A DNA stretch of 64,000 bases from Octopus sinensis (Eukaryota). Each line of letters begins with the position of its first letter. Positions within the stretch are counted from its first letter, which is position 1. The notes beneath the pieces were generated by a model that saw nothing but the letters and a program-made list of their open reading frames with translations, searched no databases and was not told where the DNA came from. Both the position numbers and the translations under genes were made by a program. The stretch is from positions 139,562,001 to 139,626,000 of the forward strand of contig NC_042999.1 in the NCBI RefSeq assembly GCF_006345805.1. Reading direction: 5' to 3'. Positions 128 through 59,804 of this stretch are shown piece after piece.

Positions 128-508
128 CTTGAGACTTGTACGATAAGTATTTGTCCTCTGTTTCTGAGCTTCCAATCTTGCCTGTCTTTGTTCTGGTGTT
201 TCTGCCCGCCGTCTAGCAAGCTCTCTTTGCCTATGATTTCGTAATCTTAATTGCCTTTCTTCTGCAGTTTCATTTTTCCGTCTTTCCTTTACCCTCATAG
301 CATTCCTATAAGCATTTGTCTTCTGTTTCCGATCTTCTAATCTTGCTTGTCTTTGTTCTGGTGTTTCTGCCCGCCGTCTAGCAATCTGACTTTGCCTATG
401 ATTTCGTAATCTTAACTGCCTTTCTTCTGTAGTTTCATTTTTCCGTCTTTCCTTTGCCTTCATAGCACTCCTGGTGAGACGACCCAGTGCTGATACTTTG
501 GGAGGCAT
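128..508 (-). CDS. Unit A: first coding exon (STPR-like 23-aa repeats) of the repeat-BTB gene; downstream exons lie left of the window
   Basis: ORF MPPKVSALGRLT...ETTEERQLRL...ETPEQRQARL with a 55-aa (165-bp) internal duplication. Acceptor ttttctag just upstream of the ATG; donor AAG|gtagat at 128/127. Paralogous to the exons at 11895, 30306 and 55440. Confidence 0.8.
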
Positions 509-7554: not shown

Positions 7555-10500
7555 TCAAGTAAAACCATCTGTTTTATATAAACCTGTATTTTTGACATTG
7601 GTAACTTGTGTTGATGATAATGGTAATCTGTCCCCTTCTGCTGTAAAAAGTCCTACAGGATAGACATCTTCATTGCTACCACAAATCACATTGTTGTCAA
7701 TTAACTGAGTTGTTGTTGTCCGATTTAGTGATTTAGAAGAGTCTTCTCTTATGAGTCTAGATTGAGAACACAGTTTTTCTTCACTATATGACACAGGAGA
7801 TAAGTCAGAAACTGGAGAACTTTCAAATACATTAGATTTTAATTTGGGTGATGTTCCATATATCTTATTTGTTGTTGCTTTGCTATTTGTGGTATCTGAA
7901 AATGGTAAGCTAAAATCTGTAGTGGATATAGCTATGGAATTCAAAGGAGTGTTTAGCGCCTGAGAACTATCAGAAACTGAACTAGATGTTGAAGCTCTTT
8001 TATTCATTTGACCATATTTGTCATCATCAGGTCCTACAGGCTCGATTTTTACAGTGGGAAGAATATCAGAACCAAATGGAGAGTTGCCACCGTTAGTGTC
8101 CAGAGATGCAGCCTCAAACTCTCGCTTAAAGATTCTGACTGTACCTTCTTTAAGCTGTGCTAATTCATTTTGGGAAATCTCCTGCTTAATATCCTCAGTA
8201 GGAACAGCTGAAATATTAGATGGCATCTGCCGGGAATCATCAAATGCAGTGACTGTCGAAGCAAGTTGCTGACGTGTTCCACTTTGAAGATGAGCATCAC
8301 ACAGATTTTGTAAATCTTTCATGTCTAATTGTTTTGCAATGACTTTTAGCTGTTGTAAAATATTAAGATCAAGATCTAATAGTCCAGTATATATGTATTC
8401 AGCAAAAGCCATTAAAGCTTCTGTACTAACTACTTCAGGAAATTTTACTTCAAAAACCTGGGAAGAGATGTATGTACTAAATACTGAGAACAGTTTTGGA
8501 GACACAGCAGACAAAACAATTTTATGGACCTGAAATATAGTAAATGATAACAGTATGTTTACAGCTTGCCAACAATACATTGATAGACACTTAAGAATCA
8601 TGTTCATAAAATAGAAAAATGTAAGTTTGTTTTTCCAACTTTTACAAAAGCTACTGACTACCAAAAGCCATTGGAAGTTCATTTAAACTTCATTTATCTC
8701 AGAGAATTATTTCATTAATACTTTAACTAAATCAACTCCATTTTCTTTTCTGTAAAATATTCTATTGCATTTTAATGACTGAATCATAAAATTTTCTGAT
8801 AATAATAAAACTCAATTGAATTCTATCTATAACTTCTGATAAAGGCATAAAAAATTTTATGACTAATTAATTATAACAGATTTATCTAAAAATTGCACCA
8901 GTAAGAAAATACAAATCAACTAGACCTACCTTTAAGAAATATAGAGAGGAGTAGAATAAAGAATATCGTGATATTAAGCACATTAGATCTTAAGCATAAT
9001 CTTTTAGACTTACAAGCTAGATTTTTTAGTTATAATGATGATGACATTAGAAACAGTTTATAAATATGAAAAAGTTTACAACTGTATACTTACCATCACA
9101 GTAGATGAGCCATTGCTAATACTGGCATCACATAATTTCCTACTTCTCCACATAGATGCTAGGTTAGACATCACATAACGGTGATGACTAGTAACTAGCA
9201 ATTTTTGTTTCGGTAAATCTGTTATTCTAATTATTGATTTAGATACAGTTGTTTGATTTGGATCTTTCACCAGCTTTGATTTGGATGGAGTTATTTGAAA
9301 TGGTGAAGTCAACACTTGAGCTGGTTTTGTAATATTTTGTGATGCTTGTGCTAAACTTGAATCTTGCTGGACTGGCATTTTAGTAGTTAGATGTACACAT
9401 TTTGAAGTCTTTGGAGATGATAAAGCACTGTCCATTTGCCTAAAATGAAAATTTGCAATTCATTGAGAAGAAATATATATAAGAGAAAAACAATAACTCA
9501 ACAGCATTGTCAAAATACCATTTTAGTTACCACATACCATCTGTCATGTGATTGTTGATTTTTTAACTTTTGATTCTGCAGGCATTGCTCCCCAAGGTGC
9601 TGTGTTTCATTCTTTTTTTCTTGTATCATTTTCATCTGAGTATTGAGGAAGTGAGGCATGATCAAAGAAAGATATAAAGAGATAAAAGAATAAAGATTTC
9701 AGTTCATTGGAAATAATTTGAACTATGACGAATTGATAAGTTATTTAATGCAAATGTCAATGATAATTAAAAAGCTAACAAATAATATTTAATTTCCACA
9801 TTGAAACTTTCACTAAGAAAAAATGGAATCTGTCAGCCACGTAAGTATATGGCAAATCCCCAAAAGCATTCAAAATCAACATGAACAGAGAATCTCTACA
9901 GAATTCCAAAATTGAAAGGGGAATGGAGTTGGATGTTATACTTATCCTATTCTGAAATCTGACATGGTGGTAGATTGTTATAATTTGACTTCAACATCAA
10001 ATATATAGTAACTGCTGCCACAATTCACACAGACATTCTCTGGTAAATATTTTGCAGAAAATTTTTCAACATTGTAATTCCTGATTGAACTTACAATTTA
10101 CAATTGATCTGACAGCAGCTTCATTAAATTTGTATTTTTATCATATACACGGATTCCAATTTATAATGGATAGTGATCCCTCAACACTGTATAGTGTACA
10201 TGATACTGTATTGCAGGTGTGTATTTCTGTGTTGATGATAATATTAGATAATGAAGTACTGAGCATGCTTAGTTACTTGACCTGTCTGCTGATGTTTATC
10301 AATTGTACAGCTCCTAAACCTGATATGGAGATTCAAGGAAGGTTACAAAGTATGACTGAGCCTTAATTCATAATTTTATTGAGTTCATTTCTTATGAAAA
10401 TTGTGGAGAGGCTGCAGTACTAAAAGTTTACATCACAAGAAACCTCATGTTATGAAGCTTCTTACGAGGGGTGTATGAAAAGTTTTGAGCCTAACCTAGA

Positions 10501-12479
10501 AACGGGGCTGCTAGGTAGCTGAAACAATTTTCTGGTAAGTACAGTCTTTTGGGAGTATTCTTGCTCATTTTCATGATTCTGATATTTTAATTTTTTTTGT
10601 TACAGATTTTTGAATAAGCAAGTGTCAAGGTTACAAGGAAAATAGAGAAAACTGAGTATCGTGCTGTCATAAAATACCTTTATTTGAAAGGCATGACTTC
10701 ATCAGAAATCCATGAAGATATGGTGAGAACCTTAACAGACAGTGCTCCTTGATATGCAACAGTCAAACTCTGGGTAAATAAATTCCAGTGTGGCAGGGAG
10801 AGTGTGGAAGATGATCCCACACCAGGGAGGCCTCCAACTGCAACCACCGAGGACAACATTGACCTTGCTCTTGGTATGATAATGCAAGATCATCGAATAT
10901 CATGTCGCCAGATAGCTGAGAGACTGCGCATCTCAAATGAAAGAGCAGACAACATTGTGACAAAAGAACTTGGGTTCTCAAAGGTTTCTGCTAGGTAGAT
11001 CCCTTGCCTTTTGACTCCTGAACAGAAACGCATCCGGTGCACTTTGTTCATGAGTAATCTGGAACTGTTTGAAGCCGATGCAAAGAATTTTCTTGCTCGT
11101 TTTATTACTATGGACGAAAGTTGGGTTCATCACTACCAGCCTGAAACCAAAGAACAATCAAAGCAGTGGAAGCATACATTTCTCCTACCCCAAAGAAGGC
11201 CAGGTCATTCTTTCAGCTGGCAAGGTCATGGCATCAGTTTTTTTGGATTCTCAAGGTGTCTTGCTGATCGATTACCTTGAAAAGGGTCACATCGTGACAG
11301 GGATGTATTATTCTCAGCTACTGTAATGCCTCCAGGAAGCAATCAAAGAAAAAAGGCCAGGAATGCTCACCAGAGGAATCCTTTTTCATCATGACAATGT
11401 TCCAGCCCATACCTCAGTGGTTGCCATAGCAACAATTCGTGATTGTGGATACAATTTGTTCCCCATCTGCCTTATTTGCCAGACTTAGCCCCCTCTGACT
11501 TTCATCTATTCCCAAAAATGAAAAAAGCCCTGGCTGGTCGCCATTTTGCCACTGACAATGACGTCATAGACACTGTAGGAAGTTTCTTAGAGTCTCAAAC
11601 AAAACAGTTCCTCTACGCCGGGATAATGGCACTTCAGCACCACTGGAGAAAGTGTTCAGCCATCAAAGGGGACCATGTTGAAAAATAAATCATCAGAAGT
11701 CTTGTACTATGTTTTGTTTTTTTGAGGCTCAAAACCTTTCAGACACCCCTCATAATACATTCATCCTACATATATCTTTGGTCTCTGAAATTAATTGCAA
11801 TATCAATGATCTCACCAATAAATTCCATAAGCAGATCTTTGTTATATTTCTCCTATAGGTGTGTGATTCTTAAGAATGTATACCTGATATCTACCTTGAG
11901 ACTTGTACGATAAGTATTTGTCCTCTGTTTCTGAGCTTCCAATCTTACCTGTCTTTGTCCTGCTGTTTCAGCCTGCTGGCTAACAAATTGTCTTTGCCTT
12001 TGGTTTTGTAATCTTAATTGTTTTTCTTCTGTGGTTTCCCTTTTCTGTTTTTCTCTTGCCTTCTTAGCATGTTTGGTGAGATGGCCCAGTGATGTTAGTT
12101 TGGGATGCATAACTTCATTTGGTTGATCTTCATTCATGGAATTTCTTCGCTTTTGAACTCTATTTCTCATATTCTGTAGATAAGTTTCCCTCTCCTCAGG
12201 ATTCATGTTATTTCTTCTCTCCTGATCTTTGTCTCTTTTATTCTGAAGATAAAGTTCTCTCTCATGTTGGTCCATATTATTTCTTCTTTCACGATCTCTG
12301 TTTCTTCTATTCTGAAGATAAAGTTCCCTCTCCTCTTGGTTCATATTACTCCTTATTTTTTGCATACGTTCTCGAATACGGTCACGGACTGCTTGCCTCT
12401 CTTCTGTTGATAACCGCTGCCGTCGTCTTCTCTGTCTTTCTCTTGCTGCCGCTCTTTGTTGACTTATTCTCTCTTCCAT
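7555..12479 (-). CDS. Unit B: repeat(STPR-like)-BTB/POZ protein, 4 coding exons (12479-11895, 9635-9538, 9439-9094, 8529-7555), 667 aa
   Basis: All junctions GT/AG with compatible phases (0,2,0); total 2004 nt with no internal stop. BTB signature LCDASI...VHKIVLSAVSPKLF...FAEYIYTG...AKQLDMKDLQNLC spans exons 3 and 4. Confidence 0.8.
10465..11752 (+). mobile_element. Mariner (Tc1/mariner, DD34D) transposon, full-length but pseudogenised, in an intron of unit B
   Basis: TIRs cgaggggtgtatgaaaagttttgagcct / aggctcaaaacctttcagacacccctca with TA TSD. The empty site 'ccttcttaatacattt' is seen in units C, D and E. Transposase motifs ITMDESWVHHY, HHDN, PYLPDLAPSDFHLF, broken by stops and frameshifts. 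Confidence 0.93.
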
Positions 12480-15400
12480 TTTTAAGAATAGTTGAATCTG
12501 TAAGCGATATAAGAAAAAAGCTCCCTTAGCCTGACAAACGCTGATGGTAAAAGCGTATCAATATATAAAATACTAAAGCGAATTATATGTAATCAGTTTT
12601 AACTATGCTACAATGAATTTCTTCAGGAATATAATGCAACATTAAAATAGCTTTAGCTACACTACATGCTTCCGTAAGAAATCTACTTGTGGAAGTCTAC
12701 GGTCACATCCCACTATTTTTAATTTTCATACGCTGTATGCAAATTGTGTCCAGAAGATAAAATTTGGGAATGTTATGCAAGCTTTTGTTTATTATTCAAT
12801 ATTCTCAATAATTATGAATTATTTCAGATGTATTGTATTTATGTATCCAGTGAAAAACAAACAAAAAGAACCTCAAAGCTCCCACCTCCCGGGGATGTTG
12901 AAGTGAGCAATGCACAATGTGAAGTCGGTGAACTGTCAAATTGAAAAAATAAAATTATATTGTATGAAAATGTATGATTATGTGTAGTATAACACAAAAA
13001 TTATAAAATTATTTGATAGTAAAATATGGTCACTATTTAAAGATGATTACAGTTTTTAATGTTTTCCGTGAAGTTTTCAAAGGTTGAGGTAGTTTATATA
13101 AATCTGTAGAATACGTCAGGTATATTTCATACGATAGATCGAAAGAAAGAGAGTGAAAGAGAAACAGAGAGATATGGGAAATACATGTTACAGAACTTTC
13201 CAATATTATAGATAGATAATACATTGTCCTTTTCTTTTCACAAAATCAAGGGAAACAACTCGAATTAAATCCCGACTTATTTCCTTTAGTGTGACAAACG
13301 CAGACGGTATAAGCATATTAATAATATAGAAGATGGTCTTCACTTGCACAATATTTGTCTTTTTAAAGGCAGTGTAAGGGATTAGCACTCACTTGCATTA
13401 GATTCAAAATCTGAACTCCTAAATTCGATAAATATATATATATAGCAGGAGTACCCGGCGTTGCTAGTGGTATAAATGCTTCATCATTCTAAAAACACTT
13501 ATATTCTAGTCTAACAACTAGCGCTACCAAAACGTTTTTGAAAAACATACAGAATTCCATGCCAAAATGTACCAAAATTCACAAAAATAGAGAAAAATAC
13601 CAGTTTTTCAACATCTTTGTTCTGGCGAATGGCGTGTTGTTCTTTGTTTTCTGCAGACTGCACAGCAGCATTTGCTGTAGCATACCTGGCAGCAAAAGTT
13701 TTTTCTCCACCAGAGTTCTGAACCCTAGCAATGAACTCATTTGCATACAGCCAATCAGAGCTCACCTTGTCAAGTTAACAAGCACACTCTACCAAGTAAA
13801 TTTAAGACAAACAATGGTGTTGTAAATTGACTGATCACCAAGTTATGCCTGATTTTAGAAGGAGACAAGTATTAGATAAATTTGCATCTATACCTATTAT
13901 CAGATTTTGTTAGGGGGCCCCATATGGTAAAGATGTGGGTAGAGGGTGATATGCTAGCAACCCTCTCCCCTTACTGTTTTAGAAAGTAAACAACACAAAT
14001 AACTATGCAGAGACAGCCATGGTTGAAACAAGAACAAACATTATTAAAAGAGAAAAGAAGCATCATCATTCCTTACCCAAGTGACCTTATCTTATTGCCC
14101 ATCACTTGTTATGCGCACATAAATTATTTTGATAGTTGAGCTCTGATTGGCTGTATGCAAATGAGTTCATAACTAGGGTCTGGAATTTTCGTGGGATAGA
14201 TATTTCGCTACCAGGCATGGCGAATGGCAAGATGTTCTTCATTCTCCGCAATTCTTACAGCATTCCAGGCACAGCAAATGGCACACTGTTCTTCATTCTT
14301 TGCAGTTCATGCAGCAGGGGTTGCTATAACTGTAGCATTCCTGGCATGGTGAATGGCATGCTGTTTTTTGTTCTCTGCAACTCACACAGCAGCAGTTGCT
14401 ATAGCATCTTGTATGACAAATAATATGCTGTGACTGAATCAGGTTAGCGTATACTGTAGCTATTAATGAAGCATTTCTGATCTGGCGACTGCTATACTGC
14501 TCCTTGCTTTCCATGGCTCTTGCGGTGACTGTGCAACCAGCATTTTGTGAATGTCTTCATGCAGTCTAGTGTGAGGATTCATTTGCTCTCCTTCTCTTCG
14601 ATGTCTCAACTGCGGCAGTTTTGCAACCAATATGGGCTCTTTTCTTAGGTGGCATTATCTCAGAGTTTAGAAGCTTCAATTACAAAATGCAGATGTAGCA
14701 AAAGTAAATTTAAATACACAGAGGGCAAAAAATTCAGAGGGAGAAAACGGAGAAAATCAGTTGGAAACTGCAGAAGTGTTTGGAGAAAAACCCATGTAAA
14801 ACAGTTTTTCTAGATGGAAGTTAGTGTGTGTGTGAGTGAGTGAGAGAGAGACAGGGTGAAAGAAACAGACATAGACTAAAAGAGAGGAACTATTACAGAG
14901 GGTGAGAGAAAATATCAGTAAGCAACAGAAATAGAGAATGAGATGAGACAGAGAAGAGAGAAACAAAGAGAGAGAGAAAAGGAAGAGAATTAGTTGAAAA
15001 TTGCAGAGGTTTTTAGAGAAAAACCCATGTCATCATCATCATCATTTAGTGTCCACTTTCCATGCTAGCATGGGTTAACTGGGGTCTGTGAAGCCAGAAG
15101 GCTGCATCGGCCCAGTCTGATCTAGCAGTGTTTCTACGGCTGGATGCCTTTCCTAACGCCAACCACTCCGTGAGTGTAGTGGGTGCTTTTTAGGTGCCAC
15201 CCGCACAGGTGCCAGATGGAGCTGGCAAACGGCCACGGACAGATGGTGGTTTTTACGTGCCACCGGCACGGAGGCCAGTCGGGGTGGCGCTGGCAATGGC
15301 CACGATTGGATGGTTCGCTTACTTGTCACCGGCACTGGTATCACAGCTGCAATTTCCATTGATGTTGATCGACTTCGATTTTGGTTCTGCTTTCTGATAT

Positions 15401-31103: not shown

Positions 31104-31242
31104 CAATATCTTTTAAACAGAATGTTACAAGCCACAGAGTATACCAATAATTCTTTCCTAATTACGTCAACAGAAAACTAGTATTTATATGAAGATTCCA
31201 ACTAAAATATTAGTATATAGTCTTCACTTTGCACAATATTGA

Positions 31243-40949: not shown

Positions 40950-43900
40950 CTATATCTATAAAACAGTCCTTGGATGAAAATTGTATGCACATTTTGCTTT
41001 GACGGTTAATGGCGGCCAAACCGAGGCTTGGATCAAGTTGAAACTTGGCAAGGATACTAAATGCATGGTGAGGATGAGACCTGTGATGGTTAAAATTCGC
41101 AAGCTATAAAGATGTGGTTGCTATGGCAAAAAGAGTGATTTTTTTATCGATTCAAGGGGGCTCAGAGCCCCTCTAGGTTTGTGCGATTGGCTTTAAATGC
41201 CCAGTGGCATGCACTGCAGGCTGTTGTGCTTAATAAACATACATTTTGTCACAAAATTCCGGCTACTAGGAAACAATTTTTCATTGTGAAAAAATGATTG
41301 CTTTTTGCCCTCATTTTCTTTTTAATTTCTTACTACTTACATTGTTGGCATTTTCAGAAAAAAAAATTACATCTACATGTAGCCCTTCAGAAGGGCTATC
41401 ATGCACATTTTTCTCCTTTCTTGCAATATCCAATGGCAATTTGAAGGCTGAATGTGCTGTTTTACAGCCATGCAACAAAGTCACTGCAATTCCGCTTGAT
41501 GCAGCTGCCAAAGCGATTCTCCTGTCTTTTCGCAGTTTTGCAAGTAGAAGGTTGATGACAAATGTTTTGCCTGTGCCACCCGGAGCATCCAAAAAGAAAA
41601 GTGTACCTTCATTTGAAATGACACTGGAAAAATTCTGTTGTACGCGAATTGCTGTTCAATCAAATGTTTGGATTCATTTCGAGCCAACATTTTGGTTAAT
41701 TCTTTAAGGTTGTAGTACAATTCCGTGATGTATTCTGAATCTAAAATGCCATCTCTGTAGACAGGGTTTGGAATACCGAAATGAGATACATCGTCGAATC
41801 CAGCAGCTCAGAGACGCCTATCGATATAAAGGAGCGCCTTGTTGTAGATTTCATTGTTGTATTCTCTTGCGTGTAGTCTTCACAAGATGTCCTCCGACAT
41901 GCTGTTTTTGTGCGTTTCCCACAGCTGTAGGGGTTCGCTTACATTGCAGAATCGCAGCATACTGCAGAACAATCACCGCATCTCCGTCATGCTCCATTGC
42001 ATCGTGAAGCTGTGTGTATTCAGCAGCTCAGAGCTCCTTTGGTGAGTGCAGATGTAGAACAGACGTTTGGATTCAATTTTGGCATACATGTCAACAAAGA
42101 ACTGATTAGTGACATCTTTGAACCGTAGCAGCTTGTTGAAATCGTTATCCCGAACCATCATTCGGTAGGCATAAAATGCCTTGCAAGAAACTTTTTTGCA
42201 CAGGAACTCAAGTTGTTGGGTGTATCTGTTGTATGTGGAAGTGGTAGCCGTCGTCACCACGCAGAAACAAGAGTGAATACTGAAGACAGTTGTAGGAGCG
42301 GTGGGTTTTGGAGACAAATGACAATCGGTTACTTCGGTGTTGGAGAACAATGTCGCGGGTGCTGTGTTCTTTGTCAACCATGATGGCTGCAATTTCGCTG
42401 GTCGTCGAAGCGTTGAACCTTCGAGGATGTTCGCCGGTGGTGTTTTGTCAGCTCGGATGACCAGTTTCATTTCAGGTCTGGAGTCCAAAAATTCAGTAGC
42501 AACTTTCAGATCGTGGACATATGGATGGGTTTCATGAAGCATTGTTTGAAGTTCTTCAATGACGCTGCCATTAATGGACGCATTTCTGCTGCATCTAAGG
42601 GATAGTTCTTCTTCATTTCTGCCCATGAAGACTTGCATAAATCTCGGCTCCTCTCCTTGCTGTGGTCGAAGTTTCCAATCAAGTGGTAACACTGGCCTTG
42701 AATTTTTTAATTGTAAAGTTTTTCTCTGGGCCTGGTTTGATCAGTTCGAGAAGTGCCAGCGACATCTGTATTGTCGATGTTTGTTCTAGCATTTTGTCCA
42801 TCCCTAATACCGAAAGACGTCATCGCGAAGCAGGAATTGTACTTCTACAAATTCTTGCGAAATAATTTCCCGTGGTCTGAGTTACCGGTGAGAAGATCAC
42901 AGAGTAATTGAGGAGGCTCAGCCAGTGGCTCAAGATTAACTTTGGTCCCGGAACAGCAAAGGCCCGGAGTCTCACATTTCCACTTTTTGGCTCCACAGAA
43001 GTTGCACGCTTTGTCCATCTTTCCGATAGACACATCAGCTCGACTGGCGTAGTCATAGGCAGGGTCGTAGTTGAAGGCAACCGAGGAAACGAACTGTTGA
43101 CCAGGAGAATTATAATTCATTTTAATAAAAGCATCAATTTAAAAAAAAAATAAAGTAGTAACAAATGAAAATTTAGCACAAAAAATGTGGAGGCTTCTAA
43201 ATAAATGTTCAAATGTAAAAGATACAAATATAGACGGCGAATTAAAATAAAGCACAGTTCAGATATAATAAACGTGCATTAAAAATTGAAATTGTTGTAG
43301 GTTAAGTAATACAGGAACCGGAAAAAGATTGTTCAAATAATCGACCCATGAAATTTGTAGTGTGTTGATTGGGTAAATCGTTTTAGAAAATATTTAATGA
43401 AATATTTATTTAAAAAATTTTAATTCAAAAAACGTACATGATAAGCACAAAGCAAATGCTTGATGGCGGGTTCTCTTTTTATTTGCTCCATCGGCGAGTT
43501 TTGGGCGGTTGAGGATTCCAAGGAGTGAGCCTTCATGGAGAAAAGGTGGAAAAAAGCAATGTGCTTAAAAAATTATTAAAGATAGGGGTGTATCTAGTCA
43601 GTTTTTCTCAGTAAATTTCAAAAGAACGAAGAGCTCATTAAAATTTAATGTATAAAATATGAATACATTTTGTTTTTGTAATTGGCAGTTAAAGCATAGA
43701 AAAAATGTGCTTTAAGTATAGCTTAGAAAAATGGAGAAAAAATAGTGAATGATGGATTATTTTAATGATTTTAATGTTGTCAGTAAAGTAAAATGTAAAA
43801 AAATAAATTTTAAAAAAAGGAATCTGATCACCAGAACGTGAGCGAATAGCCCATATCAGAAGTATTTTTCTTTTGGGTAAAAAGGCTATTTATTAATCAA

Positions 43901-58224: not shown

Positions 58225-59804
58225 TTACTTTTCAGATAAGGCAAACCTATAGTTAAAAGCCAGTGTCCAAGCAAAAATGAAGAAAACATATTTACATTCC
58301 CTATGGCCATAGGGAATGTAAATACGGTGGAGGTGACTACAGCAGTTGTTTCGGGTCATAAATCTGTATGAGTAGAAGTCCATGCAGGATATTGGCTTGT
58401 TGAGATGTTCATTAAGATTTTGAGGATGTTGCTGTAGTAGACCGATGTGGTAGCCATCCTCACCGTTAATAAACAGAAGTGGGTATTGGAGTAAATCATA
58501 TGATCTGTGTGTTTCACTAATTCGTTGGAGGGTGGTGTCACGTCGCCTGAGGACAATGTCTCTGGGATTGTGCTGTTCACCGTGAAGGAATACAGCTATT
58601 TCATTGCATGTGGGTGCATTGTAATGGCCTGCATGTTCCCTAGATGGTCTTTTCTGGGCATCAATGATAACATTAAAATTTGATGAATCTTCAGTTTCCA
58701 AGGTATACTTGAAGATGTGTACGTAGCTGTTTTTCTGGTGCAAAAGGTCTTGCAGTTGCATTATCAAGTGAAAGTTAGTACCTGTGGAAATGGAATTTCG
58801 TTGGGTGGCTTGCTCATGTAAATTACCTACAAAGTACAGTTGAAGGAATTGAGGATCTTGATTTTCAGCAGGTTTGAGTGATCCTATCCTATGGTAAACC
58901 TGTCCCTGAACTTTGAAAGTTGGCATAAACCCGCCTTCTTGAACAACATTAGCGCCGAAAGATGTCATTTGGAATGCACAATTGTACTTCCGGATGTTAT
59001 TCAGGAAATGTAGTTGTGCCAGTGTAGAGTGACTTTAAGAGCTGTGGTGGATCCTGCAGTGGATCCATTAGTGCAACACATTGCAGGAGTTTCTCTTGAC
59101 CACTTCTTAGCATTGCAGAAAGAGCAAGTGATGGACATATTGCCAATGTTCATATCTAGGTGGCAATCATAATGAAGGTTAGGGTTGTATTGGAAAGCCT
59201 TTAATAACCATCGTTAGCTGCATGGCGTTGAAAATCCTCGTCTATGAGCTCTTTGTTGAGTTGAAGTCTGCAGCATAGTACATCTCTGTTGTAAGGTGTA
59301 GGAAGCTTGCGCAGCAGCCATGTTGGCAGCATTCCTGAGCAGACGTGTAGTGCGTTCGTTTTTCTTCTCTGCAGCTTGTGCAGCAGCAGTTGAGGAAGCA
59401 TCAGCAGTTCGTCGAACTTTACGCTGGAGTTCTGTTTCTGCAGCTTGTGCAGCAGCGGTTGAGGCAGCATCAGCAGTTCGTCGAACTTTACACTGGAGTT
59501 CATTTTCTGCAGCTAGCGCAGCAGCAGTTCATCGAACTTTACGCTGGAGTTCATTTTCTGCAGCTAGTGCAGCAGCAGTTCGTCGAACTTTACGCTGGAG
59601 TTCATTTTCTGCAGCTCGCACAGCAGCAGTTCGTCGAAGTTTACGCTGGTGATCTTTTTGAAGTGCTCTTGAATTGGCAGTACGTCGAGCATTTTGTGAT
59701 CGTCTAATGTAAGTTTCGGCTGACGATTCATTGGCCCTCCTTGCTGATGTTCTTGCAGCTTTCGCAGTTTTGCATCCAATTGAAGAAGTCTTCCTTCGGG
59801 GCAT
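58225..59804 (-). mobile_element. Helitron Rep-helicase N-terminal portion (pseudogenised) with tandem peptide repeats
   Basis: MPRRKTSSIGCKT..., 51-bp and 69-bp coding repeats, AFQYNP...CSFCNAKKWSRETPAMCC, FQMTSFGA...FKVQGQVYHRIGSL, HRSYDLLQYPLLF, FYSYRFM. Confidence 0.92.

Follow-up and report, generated by a model that had tools for sequence, protein, structure and literature searches.

Fusion of the 5′ end of a Helitron, with its 23-residue repeats, to a BTB gene in Octopus

Host-transposase fusion is a known route to new transcription factors, and the donors that have been described are mostly cut-and-paste transposases. BTB domains dimerise and recruit partners; in genes of the Drosophila mod(mdg4)/lola type they are combined with variable DNA-binding domains such as FLYWCH, and these genes, like the clustered protocadherins, join a constant set of exons to many variable ones. 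Here we consider a stretch of 64,000 nucleotides (nt) of Octopus sinensis DNA (contig NC_042999.1, positions 139,562,001 to 139,626,000; G000:C3:139562001-139626000 in our numbering; hereafter the window), which contains five tandem units, A to E, of a BTB-domain gene on the minus strand. In unit B, the 5′ end of a Helitron of the Helitron1 (HLE1) type is fused in frame to the host gene. The fused exon is spliced and is retained by three Octopus species, and the repeats of the Helitron likely form a new STPR-like DNA-binding head on the BTB protein; for this reading as a whole we estimate a probability of about two in three.

Fusions of host genes with transposases, including KRABINER, were described by Cosby et al. 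(bioRxiv 10.1101/2020.05.07.082677). Host-transposase fusions, including a BTB-integrase family, are also treated in PMC12062965, where the accessible part of the text has no STPR. The STPR domain is defined by conserved Glu1, Thr/Ser2 and Arg9 in each repeat; in the silkworm domain, BmSTPR, the 23-residue repeat consists of a two-residue linker and a 21-residue helix, and positions Arg6, Leu10 and Arg20 contact phosphates (PMC4856987). STPR domains usually have four such repeats, arranged in a zig-zag, and bind AT-rich DNA in the major groove. Among Helitrons, STPRs are almost exclusive to the HLE1 group according to the HELIANO work (PMC11417382), which gives as hallmarks of HLE1 a TC 5′ end, an A|T target, a 3′ end made of a hairpin followed by CTRR, and a protein with Rep and PIF1. 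Finally, Mukherjee and Moroz (PMC10027918) reported that Octopus has THAP proteins and CENPB proteins fused to BTB/POZ.

The initial annotation of the window had noted that the homology of unit B to the other units is lost at about 12118, next to their splice acceptor, and resumes at about 13330, with 1.2 kb of extra sequence in between. Self-comparison agrees: the homology with units A, C and E ends at 12118–12119 and resumes at 13333–13386, the exact start of the inserted DNA being 13333 (A|TC). The extra DNA is indeed an insertion, although the difference is not only an insertion, since unit B lacks 185 nt (compared to unit A) or 187 nt (compared to unit E) of host intron including the acceptor, as well as the first 3 bases of the exon.

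When the genome was searched with the 1.2 kb as DNA, 40 of 138 candidates were scored and 50 matches were obtained, including four near-full copies dispersed on other contigs with 75–85% identity. A sharp 5′ boundary, TCT(A/G)TA.TATTAAT, mostly preceded by A, is common to all six aligned copies; unit B carries an extra TCT relative to this family start. Past the breakpoint of unit B, the copies continue into Helitron_like_N (31.4 bits, L025) and PIF1 (66.4 bits, L023); both scores exceed the Pfam cut-off, and three of the seven scanned pieces of open reading frame (ORF) from the copies match these families. One copy is about 4.4 kb long. At the 3′ ends of the four copies that were viewed, three have a hairpin (−3.4 to −6.6 kcal/mol) followed by CTAG, TTAG and CTAG, the fourth being cut inside the hairpin, and the right flanks read CTAG|T, TTAG|T and CTAG|A. 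A protein search with the repeat module gave 66 matches, with Helitron Rep-type sequence within 1.5 kb in 10 of the 24 fetched loci, while most of the remaining fetched loci belong to one related truncated family. The 1.2 kb of unit B is, almost certainly, the 5′ end of Helitron1, which identifies the donor in the second capture of a 23-periodic module that had been proposed from the sequence.

The insertion site can be read in the other units. It is uninterrupted, GAAGAC(C/T)A|TA, in units A, C and E: GAAGACCA|TACAC at 703 (unit A) and 55852 (unit E), and GAAGACTA|TATAC at 31218 (unit C). Unit B has GAAGACCA|TC at 13334/13333, which is an insertion at A|T, the host A at 13334 being followed by the TC 5′ terminus at 13333. 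The right flank T is deleted in unit B, so that a target duplication can be judged only in the other copies. Unit B does not hold a complete Helitron, the 3′ end being absent from the locus; when 424 kb of the cluster were searched for the family's 3′ end, no terminal match was obtained, but only two AT-rich matches of 28–36 nt to the inner edge of the query. The empty sites, the lost 185–187 nt and the absence of a family 3′ end in these 424 kb together show that unit B gained the element, and lost the 3′ part of the element with the end of the intron.

Two ways of making the fusion joint were considered and rejected. A microhomology join, through the ATGAAG common to donor and host, was dropped: the 7-mer AATGAAG is present in both parents, yet the Helitron sequence extends 7–8 nt beyond it, so that simple microhomology is not shown; apart from a single odd base, the two parts meet almost bluntly. 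Loss of the intron via a spliced cDNA is ruled out, since there is no GT donor on the Helitron side and three exon bases are gone.

The ATG of the Helitron ORF is present in all four donor copies, and each of the four closest donor copies contains stops. The donor copies have three 23-residue repeats versus four in unit B, whose ORF (11853-12557, minus strand, 234 residues) is open. The same module is also found in an amphipod protein (P0076, 59% identity), ahead of the same Cys-motif region; this match hints at horizontal spread of the Helitron family.

The splicing of unit B was examined in four runs from four studies, which we took to be RNA (no record says so); we rely on GT–AG joints, and contig depths were left out as a measure of expression. 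The acceptor TTACAG at 12498, which had been predicted from the sequence, is used: the joint between 14077 and 12497 has GT..AG ends in all four runs, and a piece of 530–550 nt bridges the fusion joint in each of them. In the donor copies, this acceptor is TTACAG in one (L003), TTACAC in two, and deleted in one. The extension of about 120 residues with four 23-residue repeats (12138–12413) is in frame, as anticipated; translation starts at the ATG at 12479 and the old start is internal, as Met124. Downstream joints were found at 9438/9537 (three runs out of four) and at 8527/9092 (all four). The short form of the protein loses 18 residues, that is, most of host repeat h2, and is thus 649 instead of 667 residues long. 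The coordinates are collected in Table 1.

Table 1. Features of unit B in the window (positions of the 64,000-nt stretch).
Feature	Position	Strand	Evidence or remark
Host A (13334) followed by the 5′ TC of the Helitron (13333), at the site of insertion	13320..13334	-	empty sites in units A, C, E
Helitron1 5′ fragment, 1213 nt: terminus, non-coding leader with intron acceptor, first 120 ORF codons	12121..13333	-	dispersed copies
Fusion joint: Helitron end ..GATCAACC, single A, host exon from AATGAAG (3 nt in)	12119..12121	-	parent comparison; bridging contigs
Upstream non-coding exon (5′ end unmapped)	14077..14500	-	spliced contigs
Splice acceptor TTACAG, supplied by the Helitron	12498..12503	-	joint 12497<-14077 in 4/4 runs
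Start codon, the Helitron ORF's own ATG	12477..12479	-	first residue of P0001, P0004, P0005
Helitron-derived 23-residue repeats: R1 12345-12413, R2 12276-12344, R3 12207-12275, R4 12138-12206	12138..12413	-	period analysis
Old host start codon, now Met124	12108..12110	-	internal in the fused protein
Host STPR repeats: h1 11970-12038, h2 11901-11969	11901..12038	-	more worn than those of unit A
Fused coding exon, long form (donor 11894)	11895..12497	-	joint to 9635 in 3/4 runs
Fused coding exon, short form (newer GT donor 11948)	11949..12497	-	joint to 9635 in 3/4 runs
Coding exon 2	9538..9635	-	spliced contigs, alignment, translation
Coding exon 3 (linker, then the first part of BTB)	9094..9439	-	spliced contigs, alignment, translation
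Last coding exon (core of BTB, then the C-terminal tail)	7555..8529	-	Pfam BTB, 35.7 bits

The translated exon chain of unit B is identical, letter for letter and with 0 mismatches, to O. sinensis XP_036357292.1 (P0004; LOC115209896, 667 residues, 'uncharacterized'). The protein of unit B is thus already annotated, in a record that is silent on its origin. The fused protein is also on record in the two related species: in O. vulgaris as CAI9720157.1 (P0001, 98% identity, the 649-residue short form) and in O. bimaculoides as XP_014782229.2 (P0002, 90%, 667 residues). At the protein level the fourth repeat predates the split of O. bimaculoides. A change from GCA to GTA (Ala178 in O. bimaculoides to Val) created the 11948 donor in the line of O. 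sinensis and O. vulgaris. No fused form was found beyond Octopus among 1215 longer candidates, which is weak evidence. We also observed isoforms that join the STPR exon of another unit to the BTB exons of LOC106877738 (P0006 and P0007, which are O. bimaculoides LOC106877738 X2 and X3, and P0003); they may come from read-through splicing between units or be a mapping artefact.

Is the added module constrained? A majority state could be defined for 87 codons (repeat R3, which has no counterpart, was omitted); over these, unit B differs from the majority of the four dead copies by 10 silent and 13 coding changes (a ratio of coding to silent change, pN/pS, of 0.28), to be compared with 4.5 and 32.5 for the dead copies pooled; the contrast has P 0.014 in Fisher's test and P 0.024 in a transition-aware binomial test. 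A cleaner comparison is that with a diverged haplotype of the locus, which in run X5 differs from unit B at 1 of 550 exon bases, the change being silent, versus 16 of 984 intron bases (P 0.009), and in run X11 at 1 of 552 versus 18 of 1121 (P 0.007); for the Helitron-derived parts alone, the figures are 0/359 and 11/704 (P 0.02). This allele test omits contig rows that come from paralogs (34–35 differences) and the high-copy repeat, and X8, with the same figures as X5, is uncounted. When O. sinensis is compared to O. bimaculoides, the module has 9 differences in 119 residues (mostly conservative), the BTB core 7 in 102 and the host STPR exon 8 in 75. The C-terminal tail differs at 37 of 241 residues (P 0.044), a comparison that is confounded: the tree groups sequences partly by species, so that the BTB half has likely been homogenised.

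Several observations weigh against reading these figures as selection on the fused protein. The run X4, which has the same organism code as X5, shows only 2 differences in 782 intron bases, and the allele test is based on contig pieces among those listed. The tree of the BTB half does not pair unit B of O. bimaculoides with that of O. sinensis; with its two long branches and partial grouping by species, it neither dates nor places unit B. Part of the synonymous excess may result from selection on the active Helitron before the capture, and the pS of unit B (0.22) is higher than its non-coding divergence (0.083). The open frame by itself is weak evidence, as it is kept in 11–38% of neutral simulations. 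All in all, the fused module shows modest signs of purifying selection, in three tests (P 0.007–0.024) with small counts, one of which is confounded.

It may be that the module is a tolerated passenger: with the host acceptor gone, the gene would survive only via the acceptor and frame of the Helitron, and the added residues would have no specific role. The failure of the module to show the STPR signature (see below), the weakness of the open frame as evidence, the retention of Met124, and the many redundant paralogs of the cluster, some of which have no STPR exon (units D and F), all fit this idea. We nevertheless consider it improbable, because amino-acid changes, and not stops alone, are deficient, because a haplotype that is 1.6% diverged in the intron has no coding change, because the module diverges between species like the BTB core does, and because the part that has been trimmed by the newer donor belongs to the old repeats.

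We argue that the four repeats of unit B are best read as a divergent, STPR-like subtype that falls below Pfam detection. They are four tandem repeats of exactly 23 residues, as STPRs are; the lag-23 identity of the module is 0.54, which none of 10,000 shuffles attains, and Tandem Repeats Finder (TRF) returns a 69-nt period with 2.8 copies. The AlphaFold model (predicted local distance difference test, pLDDT, 89) places helices at 25–45, 48–68, 71–90 and 94–117, with 20–21-residue helices and linkers of 2–3 residues at the repeat starts. The profile of the module aligns in register with the set of host STPRs (hhalign 94%, E 1.4e-7, the composition being biased). Thus the initial description of these repeats as being of another type holds in that they lack Glu1 and Arg9 and have no Pfam match, and does not hold in that they are in register with the host STPRs. 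In a structure search, the BmSTPR chain 5d23_A ranks 4 of 48,161 chains (Z 5.5, root-mean-square deviation 2.9 Å, 64/64 residues, position 6 on position 6). In the Atlas, the second and third ranks are taken by STPR clusters (score 0.83), which is a lead only, and a true STPR protein (P0088) is among the 16 relatives of the module in 1.84 billion proteins. Arg6 is kept in all four repeats, Leu10 and Arg20 in three of the four. The place of the module in the Helitron ORF is also that of canonical STPRs in other families.

Other results speak against this assignment. Glu1 and Arg9 are found in none of the four repeats, Thr/Ser2 in only one, and Tyr16 is absent; position 1 is Met/Leu, position 9 is Tyr/Val, and position 2 is Asn/Asp in three of the four repeats, so that a hydrophobic contact between residues 1 and 9 could stand in place of the Glu1–Arg9 salt bridge. 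No STPR match at E 0.1 was obtained with Pfam (PF21107, gathering score 27 bits) for the module or for the full proteins P0002 and P0004, phmmer and profile searches gave no sequence match of the module to 5d23, and Foldseek gave no match with the model of the module, whose predicted TM-score (pTM) is 0.43. The Z of 5.5 is middling, level with that of unrelated helical proteins. With 18 acidic and 26 basic residues, R1–R4 have a net charge of only +8.

The same data can be read in favor of a module that is functional and does not bind DNA, its helices rich in Glu and Arg acting as a single-alpha-helix spacer, a nuclear-localisation arm, or an arm that binds protein or RNA. The mixed charge, the replacement of Glu1, Arg9 and Tyr16 of BmSTPR, and structure matches level with those of unrelated helical proteins speak for such an arm. 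We find it unlikely in view of the strict period of 23, with a helix break at every repeat start, of the residues kept at the phosphate-contact positions of BmSTPR, of the location shared with the canonical STPRs of other Helitron families, and of the fact that every recognisable domain in the first-exon slot of this gene family is of a DNA-binding type. The module probably works like an STPR, though we do not class it as a member of the family.

The initial annotation had also envisaged an ancestral longer exon, kept in unit B and lost in the other copies. The fusion does predate the split of O. bimaculoides and the tree leaves the place of unit B unfixed, but what unit B has in addition belongs to a dispersed element whose 5′ boundary is sharp, and all three units that keep the intron (A, C and E) have an empty A|T target and 185–187 nt of intron with an acceptor, absent from B, which deletion from the state of unit B cannot yield; this refutes the idea, to which we give hardly any weight. 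That the fusion is a chimera of the assembly, as could be feared in a tandem cluster rich in repeats, is likewise refuted and the least probable reading of all: among the contigs listed from four further, larger runs, a 552-nt DNA contig bridges the fusion joint in three (X1, X2 and X11) and a contig bridges the 5′ junction at 13333 in all four, spliced contigs are found in four runs out of four, and the same protein is recorded in two other species.

We propose the following course of events. The element inserted in the intron, some 185 nt ahead of the host STPR exon, as the empty sites show. The 3′ part of the element (more than 3 kb), the end of the intron and its acceptor were lost, so that Helitron codon 120 joins the host exon in frame; the outcome is observed, a later deletion is what we infer, and a 3′ truncation on arrival is possible. 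The acceptor and the ATG of the Helitron took over, as the spliced contigs show, and at the protein level a fourth repeat, over the three of the donor copies, already existed when O. bimaculoides diverged. In the line of O. sinensis and O. vulgaris, a new splice donor trims the old second repeat in the short form; it is thus likely that the new module is displacing the old one. On the basis of the predicted model, the repeats would follow the major groove around the DNA as a row of helices, like those of silkworm FMBP-1, and the BTB domain would dimerise and recruit partners.

The host exon itself carries STPRs. That of unit A matches Pfam STPRs with 31 bits (cut-off 27) and BmSTPR 5d23 at E 0.011, while the whole ORF of unit B has no Pfam STPRs match. 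In unit A (window 143-472), the host pair of STPRs has been doubled by a 165-nt duplication, so that this unit is likewise at four repeats. A search for a living donor of this older exon found none: four matches were obtained (150 of 196 candidates scored), all within the cluster. The Helitron origin of this exon, and of the exon of unit G described below, is putative. In unit D the homology ends at 40959, ahead of Helitron remains (Helitron_like_N, weak) in 40960-42740, and no STPR exon was found; in unit F (about +77,150), the exon is reduced to a broken piece. A further Helitron, with Ala-rich repeats of 69 nt, lies at window 58225-59700.

The surroundings of the fused exon contain other mobile DNA. 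The upstream exon (14077-14500) has no long in-frame ORF, and its sole in-frame ATG opens 5 codons. Its donor sits in a very high-copy repeat (about 13730-14196), which is nested and has inverted arms, and the remainder comes from another Helitron family, of which a decayed 5′ part is found at about 13437-14812 (42 matches). In the intron of unit B, window ~10490-11750 is a decayed element, which we take to be mariner-like from its motifs; one contig (X13) skips 10491-11725 from a TA, which shows that an empty allele or paralog exists.

The cluster extends beyond the window, with twelve BTB modules in 203 kb, all on a single strand. The most upstream module is that of LOC115209932 / LOC106877732, which we refer to as the parent gene and which has more than 30 annotated isoforms in O. 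bimaculoides. The accessible N-termini, to which the largest protein cluster contributed 15 of its 32 members, map to at least 22 separate sites, from about +182 kb to +364 kb, all on the minus strand, and are annotated as spliced to the BTB tail. Most of these first exons carry transposon-type DNA-binding domains: THAP, CENP-B_N with Tc5 helix–turn–helix (HTH), FLYWCH, psq, Brinker, winged-HTH or DUF3504. The gene spans about 139,740,000-139,926,000 of G000:C3 (L073-L093; window +179 kb to +364 kb), and its variable exons lie upstream of one constant BTB tail; unit B is a separate duplicate downstream. A THAP-BTB isoform is recorded in Argonauta.

Two other paralogs bear on the origin of such exons. 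In paralog H (about +119 kb; L067:5073-5381, minus strand, G000:C3:139681073-139681381), STPR-like repeats are in frame in the exon that bears the BTB domain; 1.75 kb of its DNA is 85–87% identical to dispersed copies, and relatives of these copies reach Helitron Rep sequence in four loci out of six. Judged by these similarities, paralog H is a second, independent capture of a Helitron 5′ end. Paralog G (L065:3132-3536, minus strand) has four Met1-type 23-residue repeats as its first exon, 88% identical in O. bimaculoides, which is a third type of repeat; a search of the genome for the donor of this exon found none, with two matches, both local. Outside of the molluscs, in the mantis shrimp Oratosquilla oratoria (P0075, P0091 and P0092; LOC143040684/LOC143040549), a module of the unit B type (61% identity) is annotated before an HMG box, and there are isoforms without the module; this is a possible parallel capture. 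We also noted long tandem arrays matching the Ala-rich STPR-like repeat at G000:C29:2,625,000-2,647,000 and 3,035,000-3,049,000, with many open frames of 200–570 codons, which would be a satellite or a giant repeat protein derived from a Helitron repeat.

It is tempting to see the cluster as a library that keeps growing, in which DNA-binding heads taken from transposons share one BTB tail. The parent gene would offer at least 22 alternative first exons, the eleven downstream BTB duplicates would recruit the N-terminal 23-residue repeats of successive Helitron families, and unit B would be a head swap in progress: its Helitron module would bind DNA, possibly at the termini of the family it came from, and splicing would be removing the older STPR. 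As a whole, this picture is tentative and the odds are somewhat against it. If it is true, Helitrons are a recurring source of animal STPR transcription factors, as the fusion with an HMG box in the mantis shrimp suggests.

How does unit B compare with the systems described so far? Like the host-transposase fusions (10.1101/2020.05.07.082677), it joins the N-terminal, presumably DNA-binding part of a transposon to a host regulatory domain, uses a splice site of the element, and is conserved: transposon coding sequence is in frame in a spliced transcript, in more than one species. Unlike them, its donor is a Helitron, a word that is absent from the accessible part of that text, and the two parts are joined in frame in the genome itself, within a single exon, with replacement of the acceptor; unlike in KRABINER-type fusions, the host domain is BTB and not KRAB, and no catalytic part of a transposase is retained. 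The case can be read stepwise, from the empty site in paralogs and a donor with both ends to the joint, the acceptor, the conservation and the later trimming.

With the STPR domain PF21107 (FMBP-1, ZNF821; PMC4856987), the module shares four tandem 23-residue repeats, the predicted linker and helix, and Arg6, Leu10 and Arg20; it differs by Met/Leu1, Tyr/Val9, the lack of Tyr16 and a sub-Pfam score. The donor family agrees with the HLE1 elements of PMC11417382 in its TC end, A|T target, hairpin-CTRR end, and Rep and PIF1 in the sister copies. In the accessible part of that work, STPR is treated as the cargo of Helitrons, whereas in unit B a host gene has received Helitron sequence, of which the 5′ 1.2 kb is all that is left. 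In our literature search, we found no paper on the host capture of a Helitron N-terminal repeat or on this locus; nothing was found for Helitron, octopus and BTB together, nor for a fused RepHel N-terminus under selection, and STPR with Helitron led to the HELIANO work only (the domain table of HELIANO and the lists of proteins that go with PMC10027918 may be relevant to this). A possible descent of animal STPR factors from the N-termini of Helitron RepHel proteins, and the role of the repeats for the element, become testable.

The THAP-BTB and CENPB-BTB factors of PMC10027918 have the architecture of the parent gene of the cluster; in the accessible part of that study they are counted as genes from 'BTB/POZ transposable elements', with no Helitron and no single locus with alternative first exons. 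Like mod(mdg4)/lola and the protocadherins, the parent gene consists of constant exons and many variable exons, and it is the mirror image of mod(mdg4)/lola, the variable DNA-binding exons coming first and BTB being the constant tail. The comparison points to an apparently undescribed octopus locus with a protocadherin-like layout, in which many transposon-type DNA-binding domains are served by one BTB. The fusion of host and transposon in unit B is real and conserved, its donor is unusual, and it will be of greater interest if its head binds DNA and the cluster acts as a combinatorial library.

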